From Candidatus Poseidoniaceae archaeon (GTDB lineage Archaea; Thermoplasmatota; Poseidoniia; Poseidoniales; Poseidoniaceae): DNA of 64,000 bases. The first letter of the stretch is position 1, and every line of letters starts with the position of its first letter. The stretch is from positions 492,413-556,412 of the forward strand of contig JBJLBB010000001.1 in assembly GCA_045568435.1 (NCBI GenBank). The letters run 5' to 3'. Below are positions 1,305-25,615 of this stretch, in pieces. The position numbers and the translations under genes are program-made. Below the pieces are notes generated by a model. That model ran no database searches. It was not told where the DNA came from and was given only the letters and a program-made list of their open reading frames with translations.

Positions 1305-4300
1305 TCACTTTTTGTTATCGTGTAATTCTCTGGCTTGCTTAGCCCACTGGTCTCGCTTAACACGGCCTGGGAAGAACTCGATTGCTTTGTTGACTTCTTC
1401 TTCGATCTTAGACGTCATATTACCAACTTGTTCAAAGTTGTAAATTCCCAAAGCATTCAATTTTTCAGCAATAAAAGGCCCTATTCCTTTGATTTCTTGC
1501 AAATCGTCTTGCTCATCAATAGTGGCAACTCCAAGTGTGGAAAAGTCAATCGTCTTGGCTCGAGCTCTAACACGTTCTAATTCTTCTAACTTCTTGGCTC
1601 TCAACTTCTCTGTTTCTGCTTCTGTTTTTGCTTTTGCTTCTGCTTCTGCTTTTGCTTTTGCTTTTGCTTCTGCTTTTGCTTCTGTCATTGATTTGGCTTT
1701 TGCCTCTGCTTCAGCATTGGTTTTCTTACTTTCAGATTCGAGATTCTCCTGTTGCTTAACATATCCAGGGTCCGGCTTTACCTTAACATCCCAGATCAAG
1801 TAAACTGAATTTCTACCAATCTTGATAGCACCTTGGAATTCACCACCGCCGAGAGTTGGCTCTAAACTATCATCAAAGATTAGTTGGAACTTAATCACTC
1901 CTTCCTCGTCTGCTTCAAACATTCTTACTTCTTCATTTCCGTATGTCAGGTCTTCTGTCGTAAACTTGCGCTCGCCTTGTTGCACTGAGTAATCAACTGA
2001 TTGTATTTTCAAACCAGGAGTGATGTTGGTAATGGTAATCAATTCCTCGCTGTAGATTGTATCACCAGGGTTGACGTCATTGGCTGGTTTGAGGACGAAA
2101 GGATTGTCCTTTGTTCCTTCACCTTCAGCAAACTTAGGCCTTGAAGTGGTATTTTCTGGTTCTGCATCAAGAATTACTTCTTTATCGCTCGGGAAAAACA
2201 GTACAAATATCAATAATAATAGAAGAATGATAATCGGGAAACATATGTAACCCCACTTAAATTGGCTATCACCTTCATCTTCATCTTCTAAATCTATAAC
2301 TTCTTCAAGCACACTAATCGTGATGTTAAACGATTGGCCATGAGCAGAATTGTTTGCCCATATAGTGAACTGTGTAGCATCCATTGCTTCAGTTGGTGTA
2401 CCTGTTATACTTCCATCAAGGTGTGCGTCTCTAGCTGGACTCCATCCAAAGATTAGACCTGCAGGCAGTTCGCTACTAATCTCCCAAGTTGCAACTTCAC
2501 CTAGGCCAGAAACTGTCGGTAATTGAATACTAATTTCATTGCCTAAGGTAAGTGTCAATGTGTCTGAAGGGTATGTCATGGTAAATGGTAAGTCAAGGAT
2601 TGTATCAAGTGCGTCACAGATTCCATCGCCATCTTCATCGCCTGGAACACTGTTTTGAACGGAACTGTCAGTTCCACAATTTACTTCCATTTCGTCTGAC
2701 CAGTTGTCATTGTCATCATCAAGGTCCTCAACAAGAGGTGGCGTACTAGTGGATTCTCCGTTCAAAGTGTCTGGCATTCCGTCACCATCGCTGTCAATGG
2801 AACCTGCAGAGTCGAATGGGAATGCATCTGGTCCAACTGAACAACCACCATTGGCAGGCACTTCAGGCCCATCACAAACGCCATCACCATCGCTATCAGC
2901 GTTTGATGAGTCGGTTCCAGTATTGTTTTGGTCAACGTAAGTTGATGAGTTGGTTTCCACATCATTGAGTAGTCCATCACCATCAATATCTTCATCAAGT
3001 TCATCACAAATGGAATCACCATCAAGGTCTGTTATCAATGAATTAGCGTCAAGTGGGTCGGTTGCACAATTGACTTCTTCAGCATCGCTAAAGCCGTCTG
3101 AGTCATCATCCAAGTCTTCAACTAGGCCACCTGATGGATTGTAATCAAGTGGTAGTTGATTTGGCATACCATCCGAGTCTGAATCATCAAGAACGCCTAT
3201 TTGGATTACCATCACATCATTGAACAAACTGTTGTTAGCATAGATGGTGAAGTTTGTCAACAACATATCATCTGTTGGTGTTCCCCAAATGGTTCCATTG
3301 CTTGCTCCAATAAACATGCCATCAGGCAGGTCAGGACTAATTTCATAGACAGAGTCAGAGAGAGTTGATGTTGGTCCTATACTCAACATTTCTTCATTTA
3401 TCAGCAGGTAAATCGGACCAATCGAAAGGTCATAGTCTAAATCTTCAACAGTTACATTCACCTTAACGCTCATTGAACCTACATCATTAGTTGCAGTAAT
3501 TTCATACTCTGTGCGCACCTTGATTTCTGTGGCCGTACCGCTGAGTATTCCAGTACTTGTGTCAAAGAACAAACCAGCAGATGGTTCTGGGGTAATCGAC
3601 CATTGGGCAATTGCTCCACCTGTTGACTCAGGTACCATATTCAAGACACTCGAGTTGTTTAGCAGAACTTCATCCAAAGGCACGTATGCAATCATTGGCA
3701 CTTGGTCAAGAACGGTGATTTCAATTTGTGTCGTATCCGTTCCACCAGTATTGGTGGCAGATACGGTGTAGATTTCAGATGCCTTGACTTCGTCTGGTGT
3801 ACCAGATATCTCTCCAGTTAACACATCGAACATCAAACCAGAACTGAGTTCTGGCGTAATCGACCAAGTCACTACTGGTCCACCAAGGTTTGTCGGATTA
3901 AGTGGTAAATCACTGCTTACCGTATCATTTGTCATCTGAACACTTACCAGACTGTAAGAGATTTCCGGAACAATGTCAAGAATTGTGATGTTGATGTCAT
4001 GGGATGAATTACCACCAGTGTTGTTGGCCCAAATCTTGTAGAGTTGTATTGGTTGAATCGATGTTGGTGTCCCCCAAATCGTACCGTTGCTGGTTCCAAA
4101 AGATAATCCATTATCCAGTTCTGGATAGATGCTCCATATATCAACATCAGCAACAGTACCATTGGTTATAATTGGAGTCAATGCGGTCATTGGCTGACCA
4201 ATGGTAATGACTGAACTATCTGGATCATAATCGAGTTCAACTCCCGGCGCATTTACTGTGAAATTCAATGTGTGGTTTATTGCACCACCAGTGTTGTTAG

Positions 4301-7300
4301 CCCATACAGTTAGCATAGTTTGAGATGTGACATCAATAGGTGTGCCTGTGAACACACCATTAGTGAAGAAGAGTCCATTTGGCAGGACGCCTTCATACTC
4401 CCACGTCTCGACCATTCCACCAGTGACAGTTGGATGCAATGGTGTGATTGTCGTTCCAGTAACAAATATTTCATTCTCTCGACTGTAATCTAAGCCCACT
4501 CGTGGCTCATTGATGGTAATGTTGAAATTTTGGCTCACATTTCCACCCGTATTGTTAGCCCATACGGTGTATTGTGTTCGAGTCATGTTGATTATCGGAG
4601 TACCTGAGATTTCACCGGTTGCCGAGTCAAAGCTAAGACCGGTCCCGGTAAGTTCAGGTTCAATTTCCCAAGTTTCTACAATGCCGTTGGAGACTGGACT
4701 GATTGGTGTGGCCATCGGTTCAGCGCGTGTCAGATTGTAATTGTCTGCTGCGTAACTGAAGACGACTGGAACATCAGAGATTGTTATATTCAAGTAAACC
4801 GAAAGTTGGCCACCAGAATTATTACCCCAAATCAGATACTGAGTCTTACTTTGAACGTCAATTGGTGTACCCCAAATTGTTCCATTTCCAGGACCGAAAT
4901 TCAAACCGTTTGGTTCAGTTCCCACGAATTCCCACGATGTGATAGTACCACCAGTACTGATTGGTGAGAATGATGTCGCCGAGTTGTTGGTTAATTCAAC
5001 TTCTAGTGATGGATAGGTAAACGCTGGTGCGATGTCATCAACGGTCATCTCGATAGTAGTTGAAATGTCACCAGCAGAGTTGTTCCCCCAAACTGTGAAG
5101 GTAACTGTAGCAGTCACTGCAGTTGGTGTGCCGGTGATCTCACCAGTTGTATTATCAAATTCGATGCCGGCTGGCAAATCATCATATGAATCAATCGACC
5201 ATGATGTCGGTGCTCCGTCGGTATATGTTGGAGCCGCTGCGTTAACAATACTATTCTTAGTGAACGTATACGGTGAACCTGGATACGAAATTGAAGATGG
5301 TGCTTCATCTCGAACTGATATCGTAATTGTTGTCGAAATATCGTCGGCAGAATTGTTTGCCCATACGGTGAATGTAATGGCAGAATGTATTCCTGTTGGC
5401 GTACCAGTAATGACACCGTTTCCTGAGTTAAAGGAAAGTCCTGGTATCGAAGAAGAGAGAACAGGATAAATTTCCCATGTGCTTACTACTCCACCAACGT
5501 TGGTTGGTGTTTCTCCACTGACTGGGTCATTCTTAGTAAACGTGAACGGTGAACCAGCATACGAAATGTCGGCTGCTTCATCTTGAACAGTAATCGAAAT
5601 CGTAGTCGAAATATCGTCGGCAGAATTGTTTGCCCATACTGTAAAGGTGACTGCGGAAGTTACCGCAGTTGGTGTTCCGTAGATGGTTCCGTTGGACGGC
5701 CCAAACAAGAGGCCGCTTGGCAAGGTGGATGCTGCTGGATGAATAGCCCATGTGCTGACCGCTCCACCAGCGTTGGTTGGAGTTTCTCCAACGACTTCGG
5801 TGTTCTTGGTAAACGTAAACGGTGAATTCGCATACGAAATATCAGCCGCTTCATCTTGAACGTTGATTGTAATTGTTGTCGAATTGCTGCCCGCAGAATT
5901 GTTCGCCCAAACTGTGAATGTGGAAGACCAAGTCGCATACGGGATACCATAGATCTCTCCAGTCATATCGTTGAATTGGATTCCTGTTGGTAATGCTCCA
6001 TCTCTCACAAATAACGGTGTCCCTGTCGGTGCTCCACCGGTGTTGGTGAGGGTCACTCCGCTGATGGCGGAGTTTTTGGTGAACATGTATGATGATTGTA
6101 AGTACGAAATATCAGGCGCTTCATCTTGAACAGTAATCGAAATCGTGGTTGAAATATCATCAGCAGAATTGTTTGCCCATACGGTGAATATAATGGCAGA
6201 ATGTATTCCTGTTGGTGTACCAGTAATGACACCGTTTGCTGGATTAAAAGAAAGTCCTGGTATCGAAGAAGAGAGAACAGGATAAATTTCCCATGTGCTT
6301 ACTGCTCCACCAACGTTGGTTGGTGTTTCTCCACTGACTGGGTCATTCTTAGTAAACGTGAACGGTGAACCAGCATACGAAATGTCGGCTGCTTCATCTT
6401 GAACGGTAATCGAAATCGTAGTCGAAATATCATCAGCAGAATTATTCGCCCAAACTGTAAACATGACTGCGGAGGTTACCGCAGTTGGCGTACCAGTAAT
6501 GACACCGTTTGCTGGATTAAAAGAAAGTCCTGGTATCGATATCGAAATATCAGGGGTGATTTCCCAACCATCCGGAACGCCACCTGAGTTAGTTGGAGTT
6601 TCTCCACTGACTGGGTCATTCTTAGTAAACGTGAACGGTGAATTCGCATACGAAATATCGGCTGCTTCGTCTTGAACAGTGATCGAAATCGTAGTCGAAA
6701 CATCGTCGGCAGAATTGTTCGCCCAAACTGTGAATGTTGCGGTGGAAGTCACCGCTGTTGGTGTCCCGTAGATGGTTCCGTTGGATGGACCAAACAAGAG
6801 ACCGCTTGGCAAGGTGGATGCTGCTGGGTGAATCTCCCAGGTGCTAACCGCTCCACCAGCGTTGGTTGGCGTTTCTCCAACGACTTCGGTGTTCTTGGTG
6901 AACGTGAATGGTGAGCCGGCATACGAAATGTCAGGTGCTTCATCTTGTACCGTGATCGAAACCGTGGTTGAACTACTACCTGCTGAGTTAGTCGCTGTAA
7001 TCGTAACAGAAGCCGTTGCATAGACAGCTGTTGGGGTTCCAATTAAATACCCAGAGCCAGGAGGAAGAAAAATACCTGCTGGAAGCGTACCACTGGTGAC
7101 CGAATATGATGTGCTTGAGCCACCAAAATTGCTGGGAGCGTTAATTGTATGAGTTCCCTTGGTCCACAAGAACGGTGAACCTGGATAAGAAATATCAGGT
7201 GCTTCATCTTGAACGGTGATTTGGATTGTAGTGAAACCAGAGCCAGCTGGGTTGGTTGCTTGAATTACTATCGAGTGTACAGTACTCACCGCCGTAGGTG

Positions 7301-8987
7301 TTCCAACAAGTTCGCCTGTGGAGGAATCCAGCGTCACACCGTTGGGGAGTGTACCACTGATGACCGTCCATGAATCTGCGACTCCACCAATGTTGGTTGG
7401 CGTTGCTAAATTCACAGTACTGTTCTTGGTGAACGTGAATGGTGAGCCGGCATACGAAATATCAGGGGCTTCGAGGACCATGAGCGTAAAGGTCTCTGAT
7501 GTAGTGGTGCCAAAGGCAGTCACTGTGACCGTGTGAGTAGTATTAGCGTGGCCTTCAGTAGGTGTTCCCGAGATAGTTCCGTTGCGCCAGTTCATGGTCA
7601 AACCGTCTGGAAGTTCAGGTGATACCTCGAAAATCGGATTAGTCGCTAGACCTTGACCCGTGCCTTGGTGCGATGTTAACCGCAACTCTATTGATGGAGT
7701 AGATCTCGAATGAGCGACGAATAAATCGTCATTATCGTCAATATCAATTCCAATTGTCCAACCTGCATCATCAATTTGGGTGGCAGTTGACCACGTACCA
7801 GAAATGTAATTTGTATACATCAGCTTCTTTGGTTGTCCAACGTGATAAACAGCATGCAAATTATCGTTAGAATCAACGGCAATTGCTGGGTAAAAAGCAG
7901 GAGTCCCAAGCGAGTGCCCTGCCCAGTTGCCCAGTGTTCCTGAATATACATGAGAATAAGTATCGGCAGCACCAATAATATGAATCACATCCTGTGAGTC
8001 TATCACCATATCGAGATTCTTACCAGAGTTAGAACTTAAACCCGGTATAGTTTCATTTTGCCAAATGCCATTTATGCGACTAGAAATTTTTATTTCAAGA
8101 GGATTGCTATGATAAACTGAATGTATATTGCCATCACCGTCGATTACAACTTTGGGGCTATATCCATCATCTTCCACAGTGTTTGAAATTGTGTTATCAA
8201 TCCAGGTTCCAGTTTCATCGGTGTAATGAACTAGGTTGTGATTTGTGCCATCATGTGCTGTAGCAACTACATGGATTGCTCCAGTAGTTGGATGTAAAGT
8301 AATTGCAGTTCCTGTTATCCCTTCGGGACCGGAATACACTACTGCTGACCCCAACTGAACAACATCCCATGTGCCTGATGAATTTGTGAGATATTCAACC
8401 ATTTGACTCGTTTCATTGATGTAAGCAATGTGTAATGCTCCTTGAGAATCAATAACTAAAGATGGAAGAAAACCTGTATCTGCACCATTGTCTTGGAATA
8501 CATTATCTGAAATTATACCTTCAAATTGGTAACTTAATGCCAATGTACCAGTATTATCTGAATCGGTAAAACCGTAGGCAACTGCAACTTCTCCCTGATT
8601 GTCAGTATCAATAGCCACGTCGTAAGTAATGAGTCTGTTGCCGATCAGTAATTCAGTAGTATTTTCGACTCCAGAGACCCAAGGGTTCACGGGATGAGTA
8701 TGAGTATAGGACATGGTAATGTCTGAGATAGCACTACCTGCGTTCGCTTCCGTTGAGATTGTGTCGATAATGAGCGAACCACCTGAAGCATTCACATTGA
8801 CGATGAGGCTGACCGGAAAGACCGCTGCCTGCTCGCATTCGAGGGAGTAATGGTGAGCGTCGTGTTGCCTAGACGTCGTAGGGGTTACCAGAAAGCACAC
8901 ATGTGTTGCTAAGCGAAAGGCCAGGTGGTAGTCCTGTGTGGCCGCATGAAGTCGGTGCACCGAAGCCAGAGTCAAAGGTTGGAACAA
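1305..8987 (-). CDS. Giant cell-surface protein gene 1, C-terminal 2560-aa portion. Contains Asp-box/BNR-like propeller units, about 24 He_PIG-type Ig-like domains (about 10 near-identical tandem copies), a TSP3-like Ca-binding Asp-repeat region, one TM helix, and a conserved cytoplasmic tail (beta-rich domain, E/K/A-rich helix, C-terminal HhH module). The N-terminal about 40 residues of this ORF are out-of-frame read-through; the true upstream continuation is ORF 8869..11862 via a frameshift near 8875.
   Basis: About 24 occurrences of the LPxGLxFxxxTGxIxGTPT motif. Repeated ITVQDEAADISYAxSPFTFTKN...FTVWANNSADDISTT units. DSDGDGMPD/DTDGDGICD-type repeats. TM helix WGYICFPIIILLLLLIFVLFF. C-terminal ...DDLQEIKGIGPFIAEKLNALGIYNFEQVGNMT...FFPGRVKRDQWAKQARELHDNKK. 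Confidence 0.85.
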   Translation of the reverse strand: MFQPLTLASVHRLHAATQDYHLAFRLATHVCFLVTPTTSRQHDAHHYSLECEQAAVFPVSLIVNVNASGGSLIIDTISTEANAGSAISDITMSYTHTHPVNPWVSGVENTTELLIGNRLITYDVAIDTDNQGEVAVAYGFTDSDNTGTLALSYQFEGIISDNVFQDNGADTGFLPSLVIDSQGALHIAYINETSQMVEYLTNSSGTWDVVQLGSAVVYSGPEGITGTAITLHPTTGAIHVVATAHDGTNHNLVHYTDETGTWIDNTISNTVEDDGYSPKVVIDGDGNIHSVYHSNPLEIKISSRINGIWQNETIPGLSSNSGKNLDMVIDSQDVIHIIGAADTYSHVYSGTLGNWAGHSLGTPAFYPAIAVDSNDNLHAVYHVGQPKKLMYTNYISGTWSTATQIDDAGWTIGIDIDDNDDLFVAHSRSTPSIELRLTSHQGTGQGLATNPIFEVSPELPDGLTMNWRNGTISGTPTEGHANTTHTVTVTAFGTTTSETFTLMVLEAPDISYAGSPFTFTKNSTVNLATPTNIGGVADSWTVISGTLPNGVTLDSSTGELVGTPTAVSTVHSIVIQATNPAGSGFTTIQITVQDEAPDISYPGSPFLWTKGTHTINAPSNFGGSSTSYSVTSGTLPAGIFLPPGSGYLIGTPTAVYATASVTITATNSAGSSSTTVSITVQDEAPDISYAGSPFTFTKNTEVVGETPTNAGGAVSTWEIHPAASTLPSGLLFGPSNGTIYGTPTAVTSTATFTVWANNSADDVSTTISITVQDEAADISYANSPFTFTKNDPVSGETPTNSGGVPDGWEITPDISISIPGLSFNPANGVITGTPTAVTSAVMFTVWANNSADDISTTISITVQDEAADISYAGSPFTFTKNDPVSGETPTNVGGAVSTWEIYPVLSSSIPGLSFNPANGVITGTPTGIHSAIIFTVWANNSADDISTTISITVQDEAPDISYLQSSYMFTKNSAISGVTLTNTGGAPTGTPLFVRDGALPTGIQFNDMTGEIYGIPYATWSSTFTVWANNSAGSNSTTITINVQDEAADISYANSPFTFTKNTEVVGETPTNAGGAVSTWAIHPAASTLPSGLLFGPSNGTIYGTPTAVTSAVTFTVWANNSADDISTTISITVQDEAADISYAGSPFTFTKNDPVSGETPTNVGGVVSTWEIYPVLSSSIPGLSFNSGNGVITGTPTGIHSAITFTVWANNSADDISTTITISVRDEAPSSISYPGSPYTFTKNSIVNAAAPTYTDGAPTSWSIDSYDDLPAGIEFDNTTGEITGTPTAVTATVTFTVWGNNSAGDISTTIEMTVDDIAPAFTYPSLEVELTNNSATSFSPISTGGTITSWEFVGTEPNGLNFGPGNGTIWGTPIDVQSKTQYLIWGNNSGGQLSVYLNITISDVPVVFSYAADNYNLTRAEPMATPISPVSNGIVETWEIEPELTGTGLSFDSATGEISGTPIINMTRTQYTVWANNTGGNVSQNFNITINEPRVGLDYSRENEIFVTGTTITPLHPTVTGGMVETWEYEGVLPNGLFFTNGVFTGTPIDVTSQTMLTVWANNTGGAINHTLNFTVNAPGVELDYDPDSSVITIGQPMTALTPIITNGTVADVDIWSIYPELDNGLSFGTSNGTIWGTPTSIQPIQLYKIWANNTGGNSSHDINITILDIVPEISYSLVSVQMTNDTVSSDLPLNPTNLGGPVVTWSITPELSSGLMFDVLTGEISGTPDEVKASEIYTVSATNTGGTDTTQIEITVLDQVPMIAYVPLDEVLLNNSSVLNMVPESTGGAIAQWSITPEPSAGLFFDTSTGILSGTATEIKVRTEYEITATNDVGSMSVKVNVTVEDLDYDLSIGPIYLLINEEMLSIGPTSTLSDSVYEISPDLPDGMFIGASNGTIWGTPTDDMLLTNFTIYANNSLFNDVMVIQIGVLDDSDSDGMPNQLPLDYNPSGGLVEDLDDDSDGFSDAEEVNCATDPLDANSLITDLDGDSICDELDEDIDGDGLLNDVETNSSTYVDQNNTGTDSSNADSDGDGVCDGPEVPANGGCSVGPDAFPFDSAGSIDSDGDGMPDTLNGESTSTPPLVEDLDDDNDNWSDEMEVNCGTDSSVQNSVPGDEDGDGICDALDTILDLPFTMTYPSDTLTLTLGNEISIQLPTVSGLGEVATWEISSELPAGLIFGWSPARDAHLDGSITGTPTEAMDATQFTIWANNSAHGQSFNITISVLEEVIDLEDEDEGDSQFKWGYICFPIIILLLLLIFVLFFPSDKEVILDAEPENTTSRPKFAEGEGTKDNPFVLKPANDVNPGDTIYSEELITITNITPGLKIQSVDYSVQQGERKFTTEDLTYGNEEVRMFEADEEGVIKFQLIFDDSLEPTLGGGEFQGAIKIGRNSVYLIWDVKVKPDPGYVKQQENLESESKKTNAEAEAKAKSMTEAKAEAKAKAKAEAEAKAKTEAETEKLRAKKLEELERVRARAKTIDFSTLGVATIDEQDDLQEIKGIGPFIAEKLNALGIYNFEQVGNMTSKIEEEVNKAIEFFPGRVKRDQWAKQARELHDNKK
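1611..1690 (-). repeat. Hexanucleotide microsatellite-like tract (GCTTTT/GCTTCT units) encoding the (A/E/K)n helical linker in the cytoplasmic tail of giant gene 1.
   Basis: Direct reading: ...tctgcttctgtttttgcttttgcttctgcttctgcttttgcttttgcttttgcttctgcttttgcttctg... encoding AKAEAKAKAKAEAEAKAK on the minus strand. Confidence 0.85.
4500..7520 (-). repeat. Coding tandem repeat array in giant gene 1: about 10 near-identical ~290-300-bp units, each encoding one He_PIG-type Ig-like domain.
   Basis: The protein shows about 10 consecutive ~97-aa units beginning ITVQDEA[AP]DISYAxSPFTFTKN and ending FTVWANNSADDISTTIS, several identical over more than 80 residues. The same peptides recur in multiple plus-strand artefact ORFs (5032..5469, 6463..6675, 6841..7023, 7318..7536). 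Coordinates are approximate. Confidence 0.8.
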
Positions 8988-11862
8988 GCGAACTCATCGG
9001 CACATTTTGTCCGAGTCGCAGGGTGCTTGAAACCAAGTTTGTCGTGTTATCCCAAGCATGGTTACCTGAAACCGAAACAGGTGCGTGTTGGTCAGTACCG
9101 ATTCCACCATCACCCAACTGCCCATATAGATTCCATCCCCAGCAAGTCATGGAAGCATCGTCAAGGATGACGCAGGTGTGGTATTGTCCCAGAGAAATCG
9201 CAACGGCAGTCCAGCCGGCGGACAGGTTGACGTGAACGGGTGAGGCTTGGTCGGTGTTTGTTGGGCCGTCAAATCCCAATCCCCCTACAATATTCGACCC
9301 CCAACAATAAGTGGATTCGTTGTCAAGGATGGCGCAGGTGTGGTAATCTCCTGCATCAACTGCAACTGCACCCCGACCGGGGGGAAGATCGACGTAAACA
9401 GGAGATAGTTGATTGCTGGTTCCAGCACCGTTGCCCAACTGAGAATTAACATCCTTCCCCCAGCACATCAATGAACGATTGTCAAGAATGGCGCAACTGT
9501 GTTGAAAAGCAGCAACGATTGAAACGGCGGTTCGGCCGGTGGGAAGGTTGACGTAAACAGGTGATACTTGATCACTGCCTCCCGCACCTTCGCCCAACTG
9601 TCCTGAATCGTCCCTTCCCCAGCACATCAGGGAACCGGTGTCAAGAAGAGCACAGGTATGCTGATTTCCAACAGACACCGCAACGGCGGTTCGGCCATAT
9701 GGAAGGTTGACGTAAACAGGTGATTCTTCGTCATCTTTATTCAAATCACCATTACCAAGTTGACCGTCTGCGCCTAAGCCCCAACACATCAAAGAACCAG
9801 TATCAAGAATCGCACAGGAGTGCTTCCCACCCACGCTAAGCCCAACTGCAGACCGGCCGGTGGGAAGGTCGACCAAAACAGGTTCATCTTGGAAGGCGGT
9901 CGTTGTTGCACCGTTGCCCAACTGCCCATTTCCATCACCGCCCCAACACATCACTGAACCGGTGTCAAGAAGAGCACAGGTGTGGAAGTTTCCAGCAGAC
10001 ACTGCAACGGCCTTTTGGCCGGAAGGCAAATTCACCAAAACAGGTTCCTCTTGGGAGACGGTCGTTGTTGCACCGTTGCCCAACTGTCCTACGTGGTCAC
10101 GTCCCCAGCACATCAATGAACCGGTGTCAAGGATGGCGCAGGTGTGTTGAAGTCCAGCTGCCAGCTTGTTGTTGACGTATTCCAAAGATTGGAAATTACT
10201 GCTCCCTGAACCCCAATCATAGGACATCAAAGGTGGTGCGTTGACTGAAATTGTCAGTGTAGTGGTATCTGAACCATGTGCATTGTATGCTGTAATGGTG
10301 TAGACTGCCGATGAAGAGATTTCAGTTGGTGTCCCCGAGATAGTCCCGTCGGCTAAATTCAAACTCAACCCGTTTGGTAGGTCAGGGCTTACTGAATATC
10401 CAAAAGAATCTGTGCCGATGTAACCCAAAGTCTGTCCTGACCAATTGGTGAATGTTATATGTACGCTATCATCAATCTGGTTAACAGCAAGTGAGTTCTC
10501 CCAGCCGACAAATGCTGTGCCTTCTACAAGTGTAACACTCGACCAAGATAATGCAGAAGCACATGATGAAAAGCATTTGGCATACTTTATGTCGTAATTG
10601 GGAAGATTCGTGAAATATGATACATGTATACCATTATTGGAATCAACACCGATAGAGTTGGGGGCACCACCGACATTATCAATGGCCGTAGTCGACCACG
10701 AAGATGCTGATGTACATAATGATGCACACATGCTGTAAAAGGGATTTGCAAGGTCTTGGTCATAGAAGACCATGTGCAATACATCGTTTGAGTCAACGGT
10801 CAAAGAGTGCCATTTAATCGAATCCTCAGGAGCATTTAGGTTTGTAATGGTCCATGAAGAGGCTGTTGTACAGGATAAAGTACAGGTGGCATAATATTGG
10901 TTAGAATTGCCCGAGCCAGTTCCCTGTGTACCCGCACTGCTGTAAACAATGTGTAAATCATTATTAGAATCAATCGTCATCGAGGCATATTCGCCAATAT
11001 CGCCATTATCATCAACAGTAATGCTAGACCATGAAGAGGCTGTTGTGCACAATGAAGTACATGTAGCATATTTTAGAGCCTTATTGGCACTAGAGGAATC
11101 GTAGTAGGAAATGTGTAAGTTATCATTTGAATCAATTGCAATCGAGTTGTATTTTCCTACATCACCTGAGTTGTCAATGATAATACTTGACCATGATGAT
11201 GGAGTTCCACAGGAAGAAGCACAAGAAGAGTACATGAGGTTTTTGACGCCAGTTCCTTCAGGGTTAAGATAACCAAAGTAAGCAATGTGAATTACATTAT
11301 TTGAATCAATAGCAAGGGAGTTGTGGCCGCCAACATCATTAGCAGAAACAAGAGATGTTTCGACCCAAGACCCACTACTATCGGAAATATATTTTAGATT
11401 ACCATTCCCAGAATCATACATAGATATATGGCTATCTCCATTCGAATCAAGAGCAAGTGAGTGAGGATGGGAACCATAGACCTGTAGGTTTGAGAGGGTT
11501 TGAGGTTCAACAGCTCCACCAGAATTTATCGGAGTTATTGGGGTCATGGTTTGGTTGTTGGAAAGATCGAGTGTACTTGAGGAATAGGTAATCGAAGGTG
11601 CGCTTGAGTACATGGGATTGTTTAACTCTTCAAGTTCGCTTTCATCGTCTTCTACAAGCCAAGGGGCTTTGTTCAGTTCCACGAGGCCCACAGAAAGGGA
11701 CATGGAGACCATTAACACGGCAAGAAGGATTGATTTCATGGATTTTAATCCTAAACTACTTCTGGAATTTGCATCATATGTGACACTCATGCTCGCGCTA
11801 ACTACGAACTGCTTATCATAGTTAACCCTATAATTTCCTAAAATGCAGGTTAAATTTAGCAC
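8869..11862 (-). CDS. Giant cell-surface protein gene 1, N-terminal 997-aa portion: signal peptide, Asp-box/BNR-like beta-propeller units, about 8 RCC1 repeats. Probable true start is the ATG at 11739 (MKSILLAVLMVSMSLSVGLV...). It ends at a stop created by a 1-nt frameshift; the gene continues in ORF 1305..8987.
   Basis: Signal-peptide-like MKSILLAVLMVSMSLSV after an internal ATG. Repeated G.Y.SxAxDSNxxxHIxY...SSWS units containing SGSW/SGTW (Asp-box-like). Repeated xHTCAILDTGSLMCWGxDxxGQLGNG units (RCC1 signature). The track start at 11862 is GTG. Confidence 0.8.
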   Translation of the reverse strand: MLNLTCILGNYRVNYDKQFVVSASMSVTYDANSRSSLGLKSMKSILLAVLMVSMSLSVGLVELNKAPWLVEDDESELEELNNPMYSSAPSITYSSSTLDLSNNQTMTPITPINSGGAVEPQTLSNLQVYGSHPHSLALDSNGDSHISMYDSGNGNLKYISDSSGSWVETSLVSANDVGGHNSLAIDSNNVIHIAYFGYLNPEGTGVKNLMYSSCASSCGTPSSWSSIIIDNSGDVGKYNSIAIDSNDNLHISYYDSSSANKALKYATCTSLCTTASSWSSITVDDNGDIGEYASMTIDSNNDLHIVYSSAGTQGTGSGNSNQYYATCTLSCTTASSWTITNLNAPEDSIKWHSLTVDSNDVLHMVFYDQDLANPFYSMCASLCTSASSWSTTAIDNVGGAPNSIGVDSNNGIHVSYFTNLPNYDIKYAKCFSSCASALSWSSVTLVEGTAFVGWENSLAVNQIDDSVHITFTNWSGQTLGYIGTDSFGYSVSPDLPNGLSLNLADGTISGTPTEISSSAVYTITAYNAHGSDTTTLTISVNAPPLMSYDWGSGSSNFQSLEYVNNKLAAGLQHTCAILDTGSLMCWGRDHVGQLGNGATTTVSQEEPVLVNLPSGQKAVAVSAGNFHTCALLDTGSVMCWGGDGNGQLGNGATTTAFQDEPVLVDLPTGRSAVGLSVGGKHSCAILDTGSLMCWGLGADGQLGNGDLNKDDEESPVYVNLPYGRTAVAVSVGNQHTCALLDTGSLMCWGRDDSGQLGEGAGGSDQVSPVYVNLPTGRTAVSIVAAFQHSCAILDNRSLMCWGKDVNSQLGNGAGTSNQLSPVYVDLPPGRGAVAVDAGDYHTCAILDNESTYCWGSNIVGGLGFDGPTNTDQASPVHVNLSAGWTAVAISLGQYHTCVILDDASMTCWGWNLYGQLGDGGIGTDQHAPVSVSGNHAWDNTTNLVSSTLRLGQNVPMSSLVPTFDSGFGAPTSCGHTGLPPGLSLSNTCVLSGNPYDV

Positions 11863-12069
11863 TCTTTTTAGTTGATTTTGACTGTGAAATTGTGGGGATA
11901 GCGATAATATCTACCATCACAACAAGTGGTGGAATTATCGCCATGATTGTTTGGTACAATTTGGGGAGGAAATAAAATCTAAAACTTACGAGCCAGGATT
12001 TGTCAAAAAGGCCTTTACCATTTTAGGAGTTTACTTTTCTTGTTAGCCACATTAATCACATTTAGAGGG

Positions 12070-12813: not shown

Positions 12814-12920
12814 TATCTTGGACTAAACAAACACCAGACTTACGGTTAGTGTTGCGGTTTGCCGGACAAATCTAACAGACATCATCTATTGGTGATGCCT
12901 TGAGCCACTACAAATTCAGA

Positions 12921-15900
12921 TCACTTTTTGTTATCGTGTAATTCTCTGGCTTGCTTAGCCCACTGGTCTCGCTTAACACGGCCTGGGAAGAACTCGATTG
13001 CTTTGTTGACTTCTTCTTCGATCTTAGACGTCATATTACCAACTTGTTCAAAGGTGTAGATACCAAGAGCATACAGTTTCTCAGCGATAAAAGGACCAAT
13101 TCCCTTGATGGTTTGCAGGTCATCTTTCTCATCAATAGTTGCCACACCAAGTGTTGCAAAGTCAATAGTTTCGGCCTTCTTAGCAATACGCTCCAACTCT
13201 TCAGCCTGCTTGAGAGCTTTTTCGTCCAATTTGACATCTTCACCAAGTAGAATCTTGGCTTGATTTACCCATTGGTCTCGCTTGACTCGTCCTGGGAAGA
13301 ACTCGATAGCCTCGTTGACTTGAGTCTCCAGTTTAGCAGTCATGTTAGCAATTTGTCGATAGGTTGTGATACCTAAGGCATTCAACTTCTCTTCGATAAA
13401 CGGACCGATTCCCTTGATTACCTGCAAATCATCCTTTACCATTACAACTGAAGCTTTACCAAATACTCTGGTTATTCCACCAACACCGGTTAAAGTATTG
13501 CCGTCTTTACCAGTCCAAGTGATTATTGTCGAGCCCTTGTCATCGGTAATTGCGGCACTTCCAGCATCAGCAAACTCCTTAGCATTAGCAACTTCCAATG
13601 TCTTAGCACCCTTCTTGACTTCACTTTTCAGTTTGGTCGAAGATGCTGTTCCTAGTACCTTGAAGTCAATGGTCTTCGCACGTGATTTAACACGCTCAAT
13701 TTCCTCTTCCTTCTTGGCTTCTTTAGTGGTTGCTGGTTTCTTCTTTGCTGCTGCTTTCTTGGCCTTTTCTGCATCAGCCTTAGCCTTCTTTTCTGCCTCT
13801 TCGGCTTCCTTCTTGGCTTTGGCTTCTGCTTCAGCGGCTGCTGCTGCATCTGCTTCTTTCTTGGCTTTCGCTTCTGCCTCTTTGGTAGCCTTAGCATCTG
13901 CTTCTTCCTTAGCCTTCTTCTCAGCCTCTTCGGCTTCTTTCTTGGCTTTCTTGTCAGCAGCGGCTTCCTTCTTAGCCTTGGCTTCAGCAGCCTTGGCATC
14001 TTTTTCTGCCTTCTTTTGAGCCTTCTCTTCAGCCTCTGCTATTGCGACTGCTGCTAGAGCTTCTTCCTCAGCCTTCTTGGCTGCTTCAGCCTCTTCCTCC
14101 TCAAGTCGAGCCTTCTCTTCAGCCTCTGCTGCAGCGGTTTCTTCGGCTTCCTTCTCAGCCTTCTTTTCTGCTTCTTTGGCCTCCTTAGCGGCTTGCTTTT
14201 CAGCCTCTGCTGCTTCCTTCTTAGATTGCTTTTCGGCTTCTTTCTCAGCCTTCTTACGCTCTGCTTCGAGTTTCTTTTGTTCCTTGACATAATCTGGGTC
14301 TGGTTTGACCTTGATATCCCACATGAAGTAGACAGACCTTCGTCCTACCTTGACTGCACCTTGGAATTCTCCACCAGCAAGTGTTGGTTTGAAACTATCA
14401 TCAAACAATAATCGGAATTTCATTACTCCATCATCATCAGCGACTATCATTCGAGTTCCTTCTTCACTTCCTGAATCATCTTGCATCAGGAATCTACGCT
14501 CGTTCTCGCGGTCAAAGTAGTCTTGAGACTTAACCTTCAAACCCGGAGTAATATCAGTAATTGTAATCAATTCTTTACTGACTACAACCGAACCAGGCTT
14601 AACTGTCTTGAGTGGTTTCAAGATGAATGGATTATCCTTAGTACCGACACCATCTGTAAACTTCGGCTTTGAAGTTGTATTTTCTGGTTCAGCATCATCA
14701 ACTAATGCAATTACTCTATCCCTTAGAAGGAATATAGGTATCAGTAGAAGTAGCAGTAATAAGAAGCAAAGTGGGAAACACCACCAAGCCATTCCTTCAT
14801 CATCCTCATTATCACCATCGCCTTGTAGTTGGTCACAAATATCACCATCTGTATTTTCTGGACTCGATGAATTATCATATGGATTAGACCCACAATCAAT
14901 TTCATCTTGGTCAAAGAAACCATCATTATCATCATCATGGTCTACAGTGATATTTCCTGTATAATTAGCAGGCAGACTATCTGGTAAAGAGTCATTATCG
15001 GTATCATTGAAAACGGTAATTGATAGAATAAATGAATGTTGATAATTACTATTGTTAGCCCAAACGGTAACATTAACTGGCTCTTCGGAGTAATTTGTAG
15101 GTGTACCTCTAATTCCACCATCGAGCATTGCATCTCTTGCTGGGCTCCAGCCAAATGTCAATCCTTCAGGGATTTCTCCATCGATTTCCCATGAAGCAAC
15201 TTCGCCTATTCCAGTAACGTTTGGTAAGAAATCAACCATTGTCTTGTTGACAAATAGGTCGACATATTGAGATTCATAAGTCATATTGAAATCAAGGTCA
15301 ATAATGTCATCTAATGCATCACAAATTCCATCCCCATCCATATCTGGAAGGAGATTGACAACCTTTGGATCAGTTCCGCACATTTCCTCAGTCAAGTCAA
15401 CAATGGTATCATTATCGTCATCTAAGTCTTCGATTAGACCTGTTGTTGAATTTCCATTGAGCTCATCAGGCATACCATCCCCGTCAGTATCAAGCGATGC
15501 TGCTGGGTCGTTAGGGAACGCGTCTGGGCCAGCGACACAAATTGCTACATCAGGAGTTGCAGGTCCGTCACAAACTCCGTCACCATCGGTGTCAGGGTTT
15601 GCAGGGTCTGTACCTGTATCTGAAGTTGAATTGTATATTCCAGTCTCGGTTTCAAAGATATTATCGATTCCATCACCGTCTTTGTCATCATCAAGTGCAT
15701 CACAAATTCCGTCACCGTCCATGTCACTAGGAACATCAGTTGCATTTAGTGGGTCAGACAAACAATCGTTCTCTAGGGTGTCTAGGAAACCATCGTTATC
15801 ATCATCATCATCTGCAATTAGACCACCATCACCATCAGGGTCATCGTCTGGGAAGGCGTCACCATCGGTGTTAACCGGCAGTGCTGGGTCAAGAGGATGT

Positions 15901-18900
15901 GAGTCAGGACCAGCGTAGCATACGCCGTCAACTGCATCAGGACCGTCACAGAATCCATCACCATCGGTGTCTGGATTGAGTGAATCAGTACCATTGGTTG
16001 CTTCATCAACATCCGGCATACCATCAGCGTCATCATCCAAATCTTCGATTAAATCAAATGGTGGCAAGCCAGTATCTGGATAATCATCCGGCAACTGGTC
16101 AGGCATACCATCTCCGTCGGTGTCTTCCAAAATCTCAAGCCAGAAAGTAGATTCTACACTTCTTGGCTCAGAAGTATTAGCCCAGAGAGTGAATGTGGTA
16201 TTGTCCATGGTCTCAAGTGGTGTTCCACTAATTATTCCGGTGTTGACATCTAAAGTCAAACCTGCAGGTAAGTCAGGAGATACTGCCCAAATAGCGCCAG
16301 GAACGGCGTTAGCAGGAGGTAGTGGAATCATCTCAGTATTATTGACAAGTACAGTTGGGCCAAGTGGACCGGTTCCAACTGGGTTGGAGTCAGGACCAGC
16401 GATACAAATTGGTAAGACCGAATTTGGACCATCACAAATACCATCATCATCGGTATCTGGGTCAAGTGGGTCTGTTCCCATATCACCAGAACCATTGAAT
16501 ATTCCAGTTCCAGTTTCAGCGACATCAGATGCCCCATCGCCATCATCATCCAAGTCTTCAACCAAGTCAAATGGTGCTTCACCAATTGTTGGATAATCAT
16601 CTGGTAATTCGTTTGGCAGACCGTCTCCGTCAGTATCTTCCAACACTTGCATGTTGAATGACCAACTCGAAGTGAAACCATCTGCAGTTACATTAGCAAA
16701 TAGCGTGTATGTGATATTATCTGTGACTTCTGTTGGTGTTCCAGAGATTACTCCAGTAACTGGATCTATTACGATTCCAGCAGGTAGTGCTGGATGAACT
16801 TCGTAAACCGCATCATCAACATCATACTTAGGCATCAAGTAGGTCATTGGTGTATTGTTGAGTAAGTATGCTGTACCATCAATTGCCGTACCAAGTTCAG
16901 TATCTGGACCTGCTACACAGATTGGTAATACGTCAATTGGACCATCACAAATACCGTCGTTATCGGTATCTGGGTCAAGTGGGTCGGTACCAGTATCTGT
17001 GTCGCCATTGTAGATTCCAGTATTGGTTTCGTTAACGTCCTCAATACCGTCACCATCATCGTCCAAGTCCTCAACAAGAGGAGGCACGCTGTTGGATGGT
17101 GGATTCAGAGTATCTGGGTCACCATCACCGTCAGTATCAGTATCAGCCGATGGGTCAAGTGGGAAAGCATCTGGACCAGCAACACAGTCTGGCTCAAAGG
17201 CAACTGGACCATCACACATACCGTCACCATCAGTGTCCGGATTAGTTGGGTCGGTACCATCTTCTGCTTCATCAACATCAGAGTTACCGTCATTATCATC
17301 ATCCATATCCTCAATCAAGCCAGGTGAGTCAGGATTGGTTGGGTCGTAATCATCTGGCAGCTCATTTGGCATACCATCGCCGTCACTGTCCTCAAGAATC
17401 TCAATTGTGAAATCCCAAGACAGCGAAGTTCCGTCAGTGTGGTTAGACCAGACAGTGAATGTTGTGTTAGTCAAGGTTTCAGTTGGCATACCGGTAATAT
17501 CACCAGTGTTTGGATCGATTGACAAACTCGCCGGTAGGTCAGGTGAAATCTCGAAAGTTCCACCAGGCACTACCAAGTAAGGTGCAAGGTCGTTGATGGC
17601 AGTATTGTTGACTCCAACCAAGGTTGGTGGTGGTGTGTTACCATTTGGTGATGGGTCAGGACCGGCAATACAAATTGGTGGTACTGCATTTGGACCATCA
17701 CAAATTCCATCATCATCAGTGTCAGGGTCAAGTGGGTCAGTTCCAGTATCTTGTCCATTGATGTAGATGCCAGTATCAGTCTCAACGGTGTCAAGTAAGC
17801 CATCTCCGTCATCATCATCATCAGCAATCAAGCCGGAAGTAGGTGGATTGGCTGGGTTGTAGGCTGGTGGCAAGTCATTTGCCAGGCCATCGCCATCAGT
17901 ATCGAGTAGACTTTCAAGACTGAAAGTAAAGGTTTCAGTTGCGCCACTACTATGGGTTGCAGTAACGGTAAATGTATCACTCATTGGACTGTCAACCGTA
18001 CCGGTAATCTCACCAGTTGCACTATCTTGCAATAGAGTGTTTGGCAAAGTTGGTGAAATGCTCCATGTGGTTGTGCCATCCCAGAATGCAGGATGGAAGC
18101 CGATTGCATCAATCGGTTGGTCTTCCACTACAGTGTGTGGATAAGCATTGTCCACGCTGAAGTACAATTCGTGCGTGGTCGAATAACCGCTTTGGTTGGC
18201 GTAAATAGTGTAGGTTTGATTGGTCGCATAGACCGAAGGTGTGCCGCTAATCGTACCGCCTGAGATACTCATACCTGCAGGTAGTGGTGGTTCGGTCTCC
18301 CATGATACTGGTGGAGTGTAATTTGAGTAAGTAATCACTGAAGGTTGATATCCAGCAACTCTTGGGTATGGGCAATTTGGACTTCCTTGCCCAGTTTCCG
18401 ACCACCGAGTTCCAATATCATAATACAGAACATCATCAATTACAAATGAAAAGCGCTTACCTGGACTTACACCATAATTAATGATATAACTAGAGCATGA
18501 TGAAGTGGCAGTAGGATGTGTAGGCATATCAGTATAATGATTTGATACAAAATATAGTGACTCGTTTGATATATCATAAGCCCAAAGATGACCATTATTT
18601 GCAGTATAGTAACCCGGACTCCCTCCTTGTTGGAATGAGTTATCGTGTGCATGTCCTGAAAAATAAATAGTATCACCGACAACCAAACTCATTTCACTCC
18701 CCGGGTCGAACCCGGTAAACGGATTACCTGGTAAGTCCGTTATCATCCATGCTGTTTCGTTTGTGGTGTTGTAAGCCCAAAGTTCCTCAGCGTTGCTATC
18801 GTCATCAAAACCAAAATAAATTACATCATTAACTATGAGGCGCATGTTATTAGTGGGAAAGCCACAACCACTATTGTAAAGACACGGGAAATTCGGCACT

Positions 18901-21782: not shown

Positions 21783-21902
21783 CGGCCGTGCGGCCTGTGC
21801 CTAGGTCAATCGCTGTGGAAGGTGCGTTGGTGGCGGTGTTAGTTCCACCATCGCCCAACTCGTCCGTAGATGTCCCGTCCCCAACACTTCAATTCGCCGT
21901 TA

Positions 21903-22244
21903 TCAAGAATGGCGCAGGTGTGGTCCTCTCCAGCAGACACTGCAACGGCAGTGCGGCCGGCACCGAGGTCGACCGCTGTGGAAGAAGGTATGTGTCCAGG
22001 TGTGTCGTGTAATGCCTCCTACCCAATCGCCCCACTGTCCGTACCTGTCATATCCCCAGCACTTCAGGTCGCCGTTGTCAAGAATCGCGCAGGCGTGATA
22101 CGAACCTGCTGAAACCGCAAGCGCAGTTCGGCCTGAACCGAGGTCAATCGGTGTGGAGAGGAGGAGTTGATTCCGCTGGAATGTTAGTGCCGATGGAGGG
22201 GATATACAATGCCCAACTCTCCCGCGAAGTTCTGCCCCCAGCAC
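21903..22244 (-). CDS. Out-of-frame RCC1-repeat fragment of giant gene 2, probably part of one originally continuous reading frame.
   Basis: Contains STPIDLGSGRTALAVSAGSYHACAILDNGDLKCWGYDRYGQ, a canonical RCC1 unit. Its N- and C-terminal ends are read-through garbage in the wrong frame. Confidence 0.6.
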   Translation of the reverse strand: MLGAELRGRVGHCISPPSALTFQRNQLLLSTPIDLGSGRTALAVSAGSYHACAILDNGDLKCWGYDRYGQWGDWVGGITRHTWTHTFFHSGRPRCRPHCRCSVCWRGPHLRHS

Positions 22245-25200: not shown

Positions 25201-25615
25201 CCTCATTAACAGTTGTACCAGTGCCAAGGTCAACCCATACCGGAGTATGGGCATTTGTGGTGGTGCCATCACCAACTTGTCCGCGATTATTCAGCCCCCA
25301 GCACAATAGCGTGCCGTTGTCCAGAATCGCACATGTATGAAGTCCTGATGCGTCAAGTTGGTAACTATGCCTAATCTCAGTACTAGGTGAATTGCTTGAG
25401 CCACCTGTCTCCATAGCCGATGAATAATCATCAAATGAATCATTACCGGTTCTTGGACTATTTATCAGGTCTAAGTACCCGACTTGAGTCATGATTATCA
25501 TAATAATAATCAAAAACGCTGATTTTACAGTTTTTCCATGGCTTGCGCTACGCTGCATGATAGATGTTTTTACAGCAAGTGGATATAAGTTAACCCGTTC
25601 ATGAAAGGAACTCAA
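22184..25615 (-). CDS. Giant cell-surface protein gene 2, N-terminal 1143-aa portion: signal/anchor peptide then about 20 RCC1 repeats with GSGSGSG linkers. By manual translation the track start is TTG (computed at 25616); the internal ATG at 25559 (MQRSASHGKTVKSAFLIIIMIIMTQVGYL) is a more likely start.
   Basis: Hydrophobic N-terminus. About 20 copies of xHTCAILDNGDLKCWGxxxxGQLGDGGTxxxxxPxxxxIDLGxGRTAVAVSAG. Terminates at a stop produced by a 16-nt insertion-like lesion. Confidence 0.8.
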   Translation of the reverse strand: MSSFHERVNLYPLAVKTSIMQRSASHGKTVKSAFLIIIMIIMTQVGYLDLINSPRTGNDSFDDYSSAMETGGSSNSPSTEIRHSYQLDASGLHTCAILDNGTLLCWGLNNRGQVGDGTTTNAHTPVWVDLGTGTTVNEVVNGYRHTCATLSNGSLMCWGENTYGQLGNGQQTQTQTTPVWVDLGVGRTATRIAAAYGTTCAIADNSSLYCWGSNTHGQLGYGNQHLGLQTSPGWVDLGGNAAVAVGVGSMNVCSILNNGSLYCWGSDAYGQLGRGGPFHSSGPQANEYAPLWVDLGAGRTAAQISLGSQHMCAIYDNGSLYCWGHNSYGQLGNGSGGSMQTIGTPSWVDLGAGSTPVAVSAGDFHTCAIVDNGSLYCWGANGYGRLGTGAPTTQPAYSPAWVDLGVGRTALAISAGSDHTCAILDDSSLTCFGHDHNGALGNGPGQSDSSVPGIVDGGFTWDNSTGSNSGSSATDLIASSEGADLTVGQAMTNITFQYDSSAVSGSGSGSGSGSSSSSASAYANNKLDAKHSSHTCAITDNGDLKCWGNDHKGQLGDGGFNTDILAPSSTAIDLGTGRTALQVVTGLQHTCAILDNGDMKCWGYDWKGQLGDGGPAWSSADPTANDLNAPSSTPINLGSGRTAVAASAGDYHTCAILDNGDLKCWGIDSAHGYGATNTDILAPSSTPIDLGMGRTAIAVSAGSSHTCAILDNGDLKCWGADNYGQLGNGGSNIATNAPSSTPIDLGLGRTAIAVSAGNFHTCAILDNGDLKCWGRDYKGQLGDGGTNTDTNAPSSTAIDLGTGRTAVAVSTGLHHTCAILDNGDLKCWGWDNYGQLGDGGTQHTTSTYTTAPSSTAIDLGTGRTAVAVSAGTYYTCAILDNSDAKCWGRQDRGQLGQGSASSVGQITPVLVTGSNTWDSSTVLSSGSSSGSSSSSASAYANNKVGVGELHTCAILDNGDAKCWGFNQQGQLGNGATSLFAQNTPSSTAIDLGTGRTAVAISTGSTHNCAILDNGDMKCWGSDQYGQLGDDMSSANQLSPVSIDFGTGRTAVAISADYYRTCAILDNGDLKCWGRGDYGQLGIGTSNDEYTPPSTPIDLGPGRTAVAVDGGFMHVCAILDNGDLKCWGQNFAGELGIVYPLHRH

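Follow-up and report, generated by a model that had tools for sequence, protein, structure and literature searches.

Apparent frameshifts in a giant predicted surface-protein gene of a Poseidoniaceae archaeon: a probable consensus artefact

Introduction

Does a giant gene that appears broken in a genome assembled from a metagenome reflect a lesion in the organism or an error in the assembled sequence? The question is raised by a locus in the 64,000-nt stretch of DNA from a Candidatus Poseidoniaceae archaeon analysed here (hereafter the window), in which two long, overlapping ORFs occupy different frames. A preliminary description, based on the letters of the sequence and its ORFs, regarded them as one gene interrupted by one extra base, due to a sequencing error, a recent pseudogenising mutation or an event resembling phase variation.

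Results

Two overlapping ORFs and one giant gene

The upstream ORF of giant gene 1 (8869..11862, minus strand) comprises 997 codons from a GTG and ends with ...GLPPGLSLSNTCVLSGNPYDV*. The downstream ORF (1305..8987, minus strand; 2560 codons) reads the shared nucleotides in the +1 frame, as ...LVTPTTSRQHD, and the two overlap at positions 8869-8987, all as first described. Translation of the upstream ORF probably starts at ATG 11790, which gives the NCBI protein MFL2984249.1 (973 aa), or at ATG 11739, which gives MKSILLAVLMVSMSLSVG, a signal peptide-like sequence. The 973-aa product stands as an accepted protein at NCBI, an observation that counts against an artefact.

Propeller-like repeats and one He_PIG domain come first in the upstream ORF; seven RCC1 blades follow, and then half of the He_PIG domain located at the junction, its first. 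Its RCC1-like propeller (PF25390/PF00415/PF13540) scored above threshold (WD40_RLD, 281 bits; RCC1_2, seven matches). The downstream ORF begins with a second propeller-like region, followed by 16 He_PIG domains and TSP3-like Asp-rich repeats, and it ends with a transmembrane helix, a coiled-coil tail and a C-terminal helix-hairpin-helix-like domain.

Comparison with orthologues, as suggested in the preliminary description, showed that other Poseidoniaceae MAGs read through the break site in frame. This holds for five orthologues (L003, L007, L002, L006 and L023) and for four proteins (P0003, P0004, P0007 and P0008). Thus, the two ORFs derive from one ancestral gene, as had been proposed; judged from their sequences, they are the halves of a single gene. 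Gene 1 is best explained as a single gene of about 3,480-3,490 codons from a Poseidoniaceae (Marine Group II) archaeon, and its predicted product as a giant secreted, membrane-anchored surface protein. The order of its parts is signal peptide, propeller-like repeats, He_PIG, RCC1 propeller and He_PIG in the first half, and propeller-like repeats, 16 He_PIG domains, TSP3-like repeats, transmembrane helix and cytoplasmic tail in the second.

Four extra bases inside an Ig-like domain

The break had been placed exactly at the RCC1-to-Ig junction. It is located inside an Ig-like (He_PIG) domain (8787..8958, minus strand; APTSC...GLPPGLSLSNTCVLSGTPTTLGNTTLTITPSNAAGSGLSVSLIVNVNA when read with four bases removed), which begins ~45 residues past the last RCC1 blade. 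The single extra base had been assigned to plus-strand ggggttacc at 8871-8879, with the TT at 8875-8876. These positions are 10 nt too low, as GGTAACCCC lies at 8881-8889 and the TT at 8885-8886. Removing one A from coding-strand GGTAACCCC does yield ...CVLSGTPTTS, but this repair, which had been thought to restore the motif, leaves the domain scrambled past TPTT.

The extra base of the dinucleotide run is the first of four separate +1 insertions within 73 nt, at ~8886, 8873, 8833 and 8814; the insertion itself was thus correctly spotted, but it is not a single one. Past TPTT, the conserved sequence shifts to the third frame (LGNTTLTITPSNA, 8872-8834), returns to the first frame at AGSGLS (8832-8815) and is in the frame of the 2560-codon ORF only from 8813. 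Genuine coding in the latter frame is therefore restricted to 8885-8874 (TPTT) and to the sequence from 8813 downwards, and the part of the ORF at 8987-8886 is an out-of-frame read-through of the upstream part. A model with three shifts (A to B to C to B) gave way to the four-shift one, since the homologues show AGSGLS in the first frame.

All four sites are described here on the minus strand. The first extra base (8885..8886) is found in the coding sequence GGT[A]ACC. At this position homologues have GGA-ACA or GGT-AAA, which makes T and A the two alleles of the third position of the Gly codon. Because of this extra base only, the out-of-frame TAG that closes the 997-codon ORF (8869..8871) is reached. 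The second (8873..8874) gives ACG[T]CTA, where homologues have ACG and an independent assembly of the same population, L001, has ACT. The third, whose placement is ambiguous within 8830..8833, gives GCG[A]GCAGGC, and the homologues read GCA-GCA-GG or GCG-AAA-GG. The fourth (8814..8816; TCC[G]GTC) is ambiguous within CCG, and homologues have GTC preceded by TCG, TCA or TCT.

Removal of the four bases produces one ORF of 3,493 codons from ATG 11790, and the junction domain then aligns without gaps to nine homologous modules. We searched for the four extra bases in 10 homologous modules from nine other contigs and found none of them shared; the alignment over those modules is also gap-free after their removal. 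The hmmscan scores for He_PIG (PF05345; gathering cut-off 24 bits) follow the same order. The sequence as it stands scored 19.5 bits, and one correction raised the score to 22.8 bits, with the alignment ending at profile position 70. Only the multiply corrected reading exceeded the threshold, with 30.0 bits over profile positions 37-95. Correction of all four sites is the only reading to give ...SGTPTTLGNTTLTITPSNAxGxGLSVSLIVNVNASGG, present in all homologues. The He_PIG score and the homologue alignment thus rule out the single-base repair.

Each extra base comes directly after a third codon position, and at all four sites it is the alternative allele, among homologues, of that preceding position, although for three of the four sites the alternative alleles were taken in part from homologues more distant than the population itself. 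A random insertion would match by chance with a frequency of 0.28 per site, giving p ~0.006 for four matches. The alleles of L001 are directly visible at 8874 and 8815.

Comparison with assemblies of the same population and related species

The Tara-Oceans MAG L001 (GCA_002701025.1, contig PADQ01000027.1) was assembled independently from the same population, and in the flanks it is identical to the window at ~99.9% of positions (one difference in 1.1 kb, and four in the 2.5 kb downstream). In contrast to this agreement elsewhere, a cassette of 257 nt (8814..9070, minus strand) differs between the two by eight SNPs, five indels and 17 N calls; the Ns of L001 lie at 5681-5862 of its contig. L001 lacks three of the four gene 1 insertions and reads TPTTLGNTTLTITPSNAKGNGLSVSLIVNV in frame, but other extra bases, GCCA[G]CA and GGT[AA]ACT, are found in its copy of these ~250 nt. 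In the pipeline behind L001, Minimus2 was used to merge contigs sharing 95% identity or more (PMC5769542).

MAGs of related species also show their own indels in the gene 1 homologue. L008 has CCA[G]AA where homologues vary, L005 a -1 change at a variable site, and L007 a C5 run shortened to C4. When JGI metagenome contigs were searched with a degenerate 35-mer for further members of this population, L023 was the only contig retrieved. It carries an intact but more distant orthologue (75% nt identity) and thus provides no further allele data.

A second insertion cluster in the paralogue

We mapped the frameshifts of the paralogous gene 2 by frameshift-aware dynamic-programming alignment, plain tblastn being too noisy because of the repeats. 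Eight +1 insertions are clustered in the last RCC1 blades (21651..22210, minus strand), at ~22210, 22158, 22007, 21865, 21765, 21707, 21679 and 21651, and this cluster separates the ORF 22184..25615 from the ORF 12921..21782. Removal of the eight bases gives one ORF of 4,228 codons. All 12 frame changes in the two genes are +1 insertions, although for one gene 2 break the choice of template decides between two +1 and a single -1. None of the 12 lies in a homopolymer of more than two bases. The flanking 997, 2560, 1143 and 2953 codons are entirely open. Long ORFs make up ~95% of the remaining window, in which no further gene looks broken.

Confusion between the two paralogues within the window was considered as a cause and rejected, as they have little similarity at the megablast level, namely a 255-nt 3' end (89%) and one 112-nt stretch (79%).

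Discussion

Most likely origin of the extra bases

The sequences show the four and the eight extra bases, each of them confined to this assembly, their occurrence at polymorphic sites and the recovery of full-length ORFs on their removal. The extra bases are probably consensus artefacts that arose where two variants were collapsed, and we infer that the consensus step created them. As the four extra bases of gene 1 most likely come from an assembler merging two variants, the frameshift is probably an ordinary assembly error, and of the explanations first offered a sequencing or assembly error is strongly favoured. The split of gene 1 would then be absent from the organism's own DNA. An assembler or polisher probably built a consensus over a ~250-nt cassette for which two or more ~10%-divergent variants were present, either near-identical paralogous modules or alleles of different strains. 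Where these differed at third-codon positions, both allelic bases would have been retained in tandem at four sites, each adding +1, and the same process would have occurred eight times in the last RCC1 blades of gene 2.

Three features of the locus are those of such an artefact. The indels are absent from all homologues, and their removal restores both a gap-free alignment and an open frame. They occur at polymorphic positions, with the inserted base corresponding to the alternative allele. Finally, L001 is discordant or ambiguous across the 257 nt and concordant elsewhere. For gene 1 two assemblies of the population could be compared, for gene 2 one only. It counts against an artefact that pure de Bruijn short-read assembly does not normally invent bases. 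Long-read metagenome assemblers collapse close strains, and indels are one of the main causes of broken ORFs (PMC8302730).

Alternative explanations

The four insertions could be real in this strain, gene 1 being, like its paralogue, a recently inactivated pseudogene. We consider this unlikely. The insertions are present in the deposited sequence, both paralogues are affected, giant surface genes are often dispensable and variable, and broken copies are also found in related MAGs. However, a genuine lesion would have to confine four independent +1 changes to 73 nt of gene 1 (10.5 kb) and eight to 560 nt of gene 2 (12.7 kb), with no stop or indel elsewhere in either. Chance clustering of this kind in gene 1 alone has a probability of ~(73/10500)^3, roughly 3e-7. 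In addition, all 12 changes are insertions with no deletion, every base inserted in gene 1 matches an alternative allele, and three of these insertions are missing from the 99.9%-identical population sampled by L001. We know of no mutational process that produces such a pattern. Looking for the mixed disabling mutations along the gene that mark pseudogene decay, we found only +1 changes in two clusters. The pseudogenising mutation offered in the preliminary description thus survives, but as a very odd multi-insertion lesion.

In a quite improbable variant of this scenario, the insertions are real and the ~250-nt Ig-module cassette beside the RCC1 propeller is a recombination or mutation hot spot in the giant adhesin genes of Poseidoniaceae. 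If so, the extra bases there would be templated traces of mosaic exchange, either between diverged alleles or between paralogous modules, and populations would contain copies of both paralogues that are switched off, which would amount to on/off variation of archaeal surface proteins.

It is slightly less probable still that the RCC1 part and the Ig-repeat part are now separately expressed, with the scrambled stretch as a decaying linker. The downstream ORFs remain open for 2,560 and 2,953 codons, and gene callers place a GTG start at VNASGG in L001. Yet the downstream part has no signal peptide, despite ~2,300 residues of extracellular type before its single transmembrane helix. The break also falls midway through a folded Ig-like domain, so that the upstream product would terminate in an incomplete domain, and orthologues are continuous across the site.

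Phase variation, in which a reversible single-base slip in a short run would toggle an adhesin, is highly improbable, although it had been named as one option. The product is a predicted surface protein, the first extra base is part of an AA dinucleotide, and the number of A residues at that site differs in L001. But neither a homopolymer nor a short tandem repeat is present, no run at the 12 sites exceeding 2 nt, and a repeat scan at the shift sites retrieved nothing relevant. Moreover, frame restoration takes four separate changes; a single length change leaves the Ig domain scrambled (22.8 vs 30.0 bits). Programmed +1 ribosomal frameshifting or transcriptional slippage joining the ORFs can practically be dismissed, as it has nothing more than the ORF overlap in its favour, would require four successive shifts without a slippery or shifty-stop motif, is not conserved (the junction is in one frame in the orthologues), and has no relevant element in an Rfam scan, whose sole match was RNaseP_nuc (11 bits, E 0.59).

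Implications

Given the preferred explanation, a consensus artefact, genes 1 and 2 should be annotated as single genes of ~3,490 and ~4,230 codons rather than each as an RCC1 protein and an orphan Ig-repeat protein. In such MAGs, microdiverse loci would inflate the number of pseudogenes counted. If the insertions were real, they would represent an unusual mutational signature, which the present evidence makes unlikely. A modest but genuine biological signal is that the cassette at the RCC1/Ig boundary is ~10% divergent between otherwise ~99.9% identical genomes, which points to allele or paralogue exchange in giant surface proteins.

Comparison with known systems

The locus resembles known indel artefacts of MAG consensus building and polishing. 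As in those, the indels are limited to a locally polymorphic stretch with clean surroundings, the inserted base is the other allele, and independent assemblies of the same population have different indels and ambiguity codes. It differs from them in that the usual long-read errors occur in homopolymers, whereas the insertions in genes 1 and 2 do not. Simple-sequence-repeat contingency loci of phase-variable adhesins share with gene 1 a surface-protein gene turned off by a 1-nt length change; here, in contrast, a repeat tract is lacking, and several changes at separate positions are needed. In frameshifted surface-protein pseudogenes too, two adjacent ORFs on the same strand jointly cover one orthologous protein, but decay normally scatters stops and indels of both signs, unlike the 12 +1 changes in two tight clusters found here. 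Finally, gene 1 has the domain families and the domain order of the giant He_PIG/RCC1/TSP3 adhesin-like proteins of Marine Group II. The junction module is 70-83% identical to those of the orthologues compared (CM001443.1 from MG-II, and the FRAM and W_MB9 MAGs). The frame is interrupted in the window, whereas in L003 and L007, two of the orthologues, it stays open across the site, for >2,890 codons.

The break in gene 1

The upstream ORF of gene 1, a giant surface-protein gene (8869..11862, minus strand; 997 codons, ending in ...GLPPGLSLSNTCVLSGNPYDV*), and its downstream ORF (1305..8987, minus strand; 2560 codons) do overlap, and over the shared bases the downstream one is in the +1 frame (...LVTPTTSRQHD...). 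In the Pfam analysis, the upstream ORF matched He_PIG, seven RCC1 blades and an RCC1-like propeller, and the downstream ORF matched 16 He_PIG domains and TSP3-like repeats. By inspection, the N-terminus (MKSILLAVLMVSMSLSVG) is signal-peptide-like, and the C-terminal part has a single transmembrane helix, a tail rich in Lys, Glu and Ala, and an end that resembles a helix-hairpin-helix. NCBI lists the upstream ORF in a 973-aa version (MFL2984249.1), encoded on a 622,029-bp MAG contig. Database matches assign gene 1 to Candidatus Poseidoniaceae (Marine Group II), and its neighbours, which code for an HTH_10 regulator, FlaI/FlaJ-like T2SSE/F proteins, AcnX, an H+-PPase and PolX, point to an archaeon.

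The preliminary description had proposed that a single +1 insertion splits one gene exactly at the RCC1-to-Ig-like junction. It was right that the two ORFs are one gene, and the coding-strand motif on which it relied, GGTAACCCC, is present, but at 8881-8889 (plus-strand TT at 8885-8886), 10 nt higher than proposed. The break does not mark a domain boundary but falls within the He_PIG domain located after the RCC1 propeller, and one lesion is not enough. In the three-frame translation, the Ig-like domain resumes after ...CVLSG as TPTT in the frame of the 2560-codon ORF, continues as LGNTTLTITPSNA in the third frame, returns to the frame of the 997-codon ORF with AGSGLS and, from 8813 onward, reads VSLIVNVNASGG... 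in the 2560-codon frame. The intact homologous proteins P0003, P0007 and P0008 have the same Ig-like sequence in one frame (...SNTCVLSGTPTT[LV][GD][NS]TTLTITPSNA[EAK]G[SN]GLSV[SG]L[IT]VNVNASGG...). Frameshift-aware alignment placed four +1 insertions at 8886, 8873, 8833 and 8814, and once these bases are deleted a single open frame of 3,493 codons runs from the ATG at 11790 (3,476 codons from an alternative ATG at 11739). The hmmscan score of the junction He_PIG domain, for which the cut-off was 24 bits, is 19.5 bits as deposited, 22.8 bits after the single correction, with an alignment ending at the TPT motif, and 30.0 bits after the multiple correction (profile positions 37-95).

The extra bases and the microdiverse cassette

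We aligned the window with ten homologous modules, which were taken from nine other contigs. The four extra bases are exclusive to the window in this set, and without them its module aligns gap-free to the others. Each comes immediately after a third codon position at which the homologues differ, and corresponds to an alternative allele there: GGT|A (GGT/GGA), ACG|T (ACG/ACT), GCG|A (GCG/GCA) and TCC|G (TCx/TCG). Random insertion in the same stretch would match an allele with a probability of 0.28, which gives p ~0.006 for four out of four.

Contig L001 (PADQ01000027.1, GCA_002701025.1) represents the same population as the window, from which it differs by one SNP in the upstream 1.1 kb and four differences in the downstream 2.5 kb. 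Within the cassette at 8814-9070 (minus strand), L001 shows eight SNPs, five indels and 17 Ns. The L001 junction reads TPTTLGNTTLTITPSNAKGNGLSVSLIVNV in frame, and L001 has extra bases of its own, GCCA[G]CA and GGT[AA]ACT, at two further variable sites; the second resembles a merger of AAA and ACT. The L001 pipeline used Minimus2 to merge contigs at least 95% identical (PMC5769542), and the Ns probably mark points where merged variants disagree.

Identity between the two assemblies is mosaic, at ~99.9% over 6311-8813 and 9071-10200, with ~10% divergence over 8814-9070 and ~15% over 10204-10402, no alignment over 10402-11514 and 90.7% identity over 11514-13832. This pattern suggests that the giant genes and their surroundings undergo cassette-like recombination. 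The 1.6-kb ENA contig L024 (NODE_2061, coding for P0008) has the Ig module twice (1-212 and 1221-1514), upstream (SGKPTTLGNTTLTITPSNAKGNGLSVSLIVSV) and downstream of an RCC1 array. Its upstream copy carries the K/AKGNG allele of L001, and hence paralogous copies could be donors of variant alleles.

Gene 2 and the rest of the window

The paralogous giant gene 2 (ORFs 22184..25615 and 12921..21782, minus strand) harbours eight +1 insertions at 21651-22210 (minus strand), in its last RCC1 blades, and removing them gives a single ORF of 4,228 codons. All 12 events in the two genes are +1 insertions, with one gene 2 break readable, depending on the template, as a single -1 or as two +1, and none lies at a homopolymer longer than 2 nt. 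The other ~23 kb of both genes contain no stop and no shift. Apart from a stop-rich gap at 21800-22184, no sizeable part of the window lacks a long ORF; outside the two genes, ~95% of the window is under long ORFs. Two of its plus-strand ORFs, 35678-36070 and 36051-36722, overlap by 20 nt and could be either two genes or a further split one.

Most of gene 1 has no megablast-level similarity to gene 2, whereas their final 255 nt (1305-1560 and 12921-13176) are 89% identical and encode ...IKGIGPFIAEKL.ALGIY.FEQVGNMTSKIEEEVNKAIEFFPGRVKRDQWAKQARELHDNKK. This helix-hairpin-helix-like domain at the cytoplasmic C-terminus, of which gene 2 has two copies, appears to be conserved or homogenised.

Origin of the insertions

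From these comparisons, the insertions most probably stem from a consensus error during assembly, at a microdiverse cassette. We consider them artefacts because they are unique to the window assembly and match alternative alleles, because the independent assembly L001 disagrees at the same place, and because gene 2 repeats the pattern, with one sign only, no homopolymers and clean sequence elsewhere. A genuine multi-insertion lesion is improbable: random decay would confine four events to 73 nt in a gene of 10.5 kb with a probability of ~3e-7, and it would not yield insertions only.

The comparison with orthologues, which the preliminary description had recommended, supports one ancestral gene. 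A scan of GTDB species-representative genomes identified 21 loci encoding relatives, including 19 in Poseidoniales or related archaeal MAGs, and most of the 21 have the junction within a single frame. Two loci remain open across it for as far as the retrieved DNA extends (L003, 2,891 codons; L007, 2,986 codons), and L002 (CM001443.1), L006 and L023, the sole JGI metagenome contig found, are likewise unbroken there. On this sequence evidence, the frameshift is not conserved, which excludes programmed recoding. Neither an Rfam element nor a repeat tract was found.

Related MAGs have their own indels in this giant-gene family, several of them where homologues differ: CCA[G]AA in L008, a -1 in NDN[N/T][Q/K]Q in L005, C5 to C4 near the N-terminus in L007 and about 10 frame changes in L004. 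The tandem He_PIG array (~273-nt units) of related FRAM MAGs shows repeated frame changes (L004, 8418-9701; L005, 8955-10174; L008, 7758-8575), with some consecutive breaks 272-274 nt apart, about one repeat unit, and others ~230 nt or more; these look like assembly trouble in a repeat array rather than biology. ENA contigs end in a sequencing-adapter sequence, GTCTCGTGGGCTCGGAGATGTGTATAAGAGACAG, which we take to be a Nextera adapter (start of L024; C-termini of P0004, P0008 and P0007). Its translation gives peptides including CLLYTSPSPRDPH and VSYTHLTLPTTD, and the termini of these three proteins are therefore not biological.

The finding is biologically ordinary, and its useful products are corrected gene models and a pointer to a small hypervariable module. 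Overlap or partial-order-alignment consensus may turn heterozygous or variant sites into tandem insertions of both alleles. Assemblers for long-read metagenomes merge closely related strains, and indels rank among the main reasons why ORFs are broken (PMC8302730).
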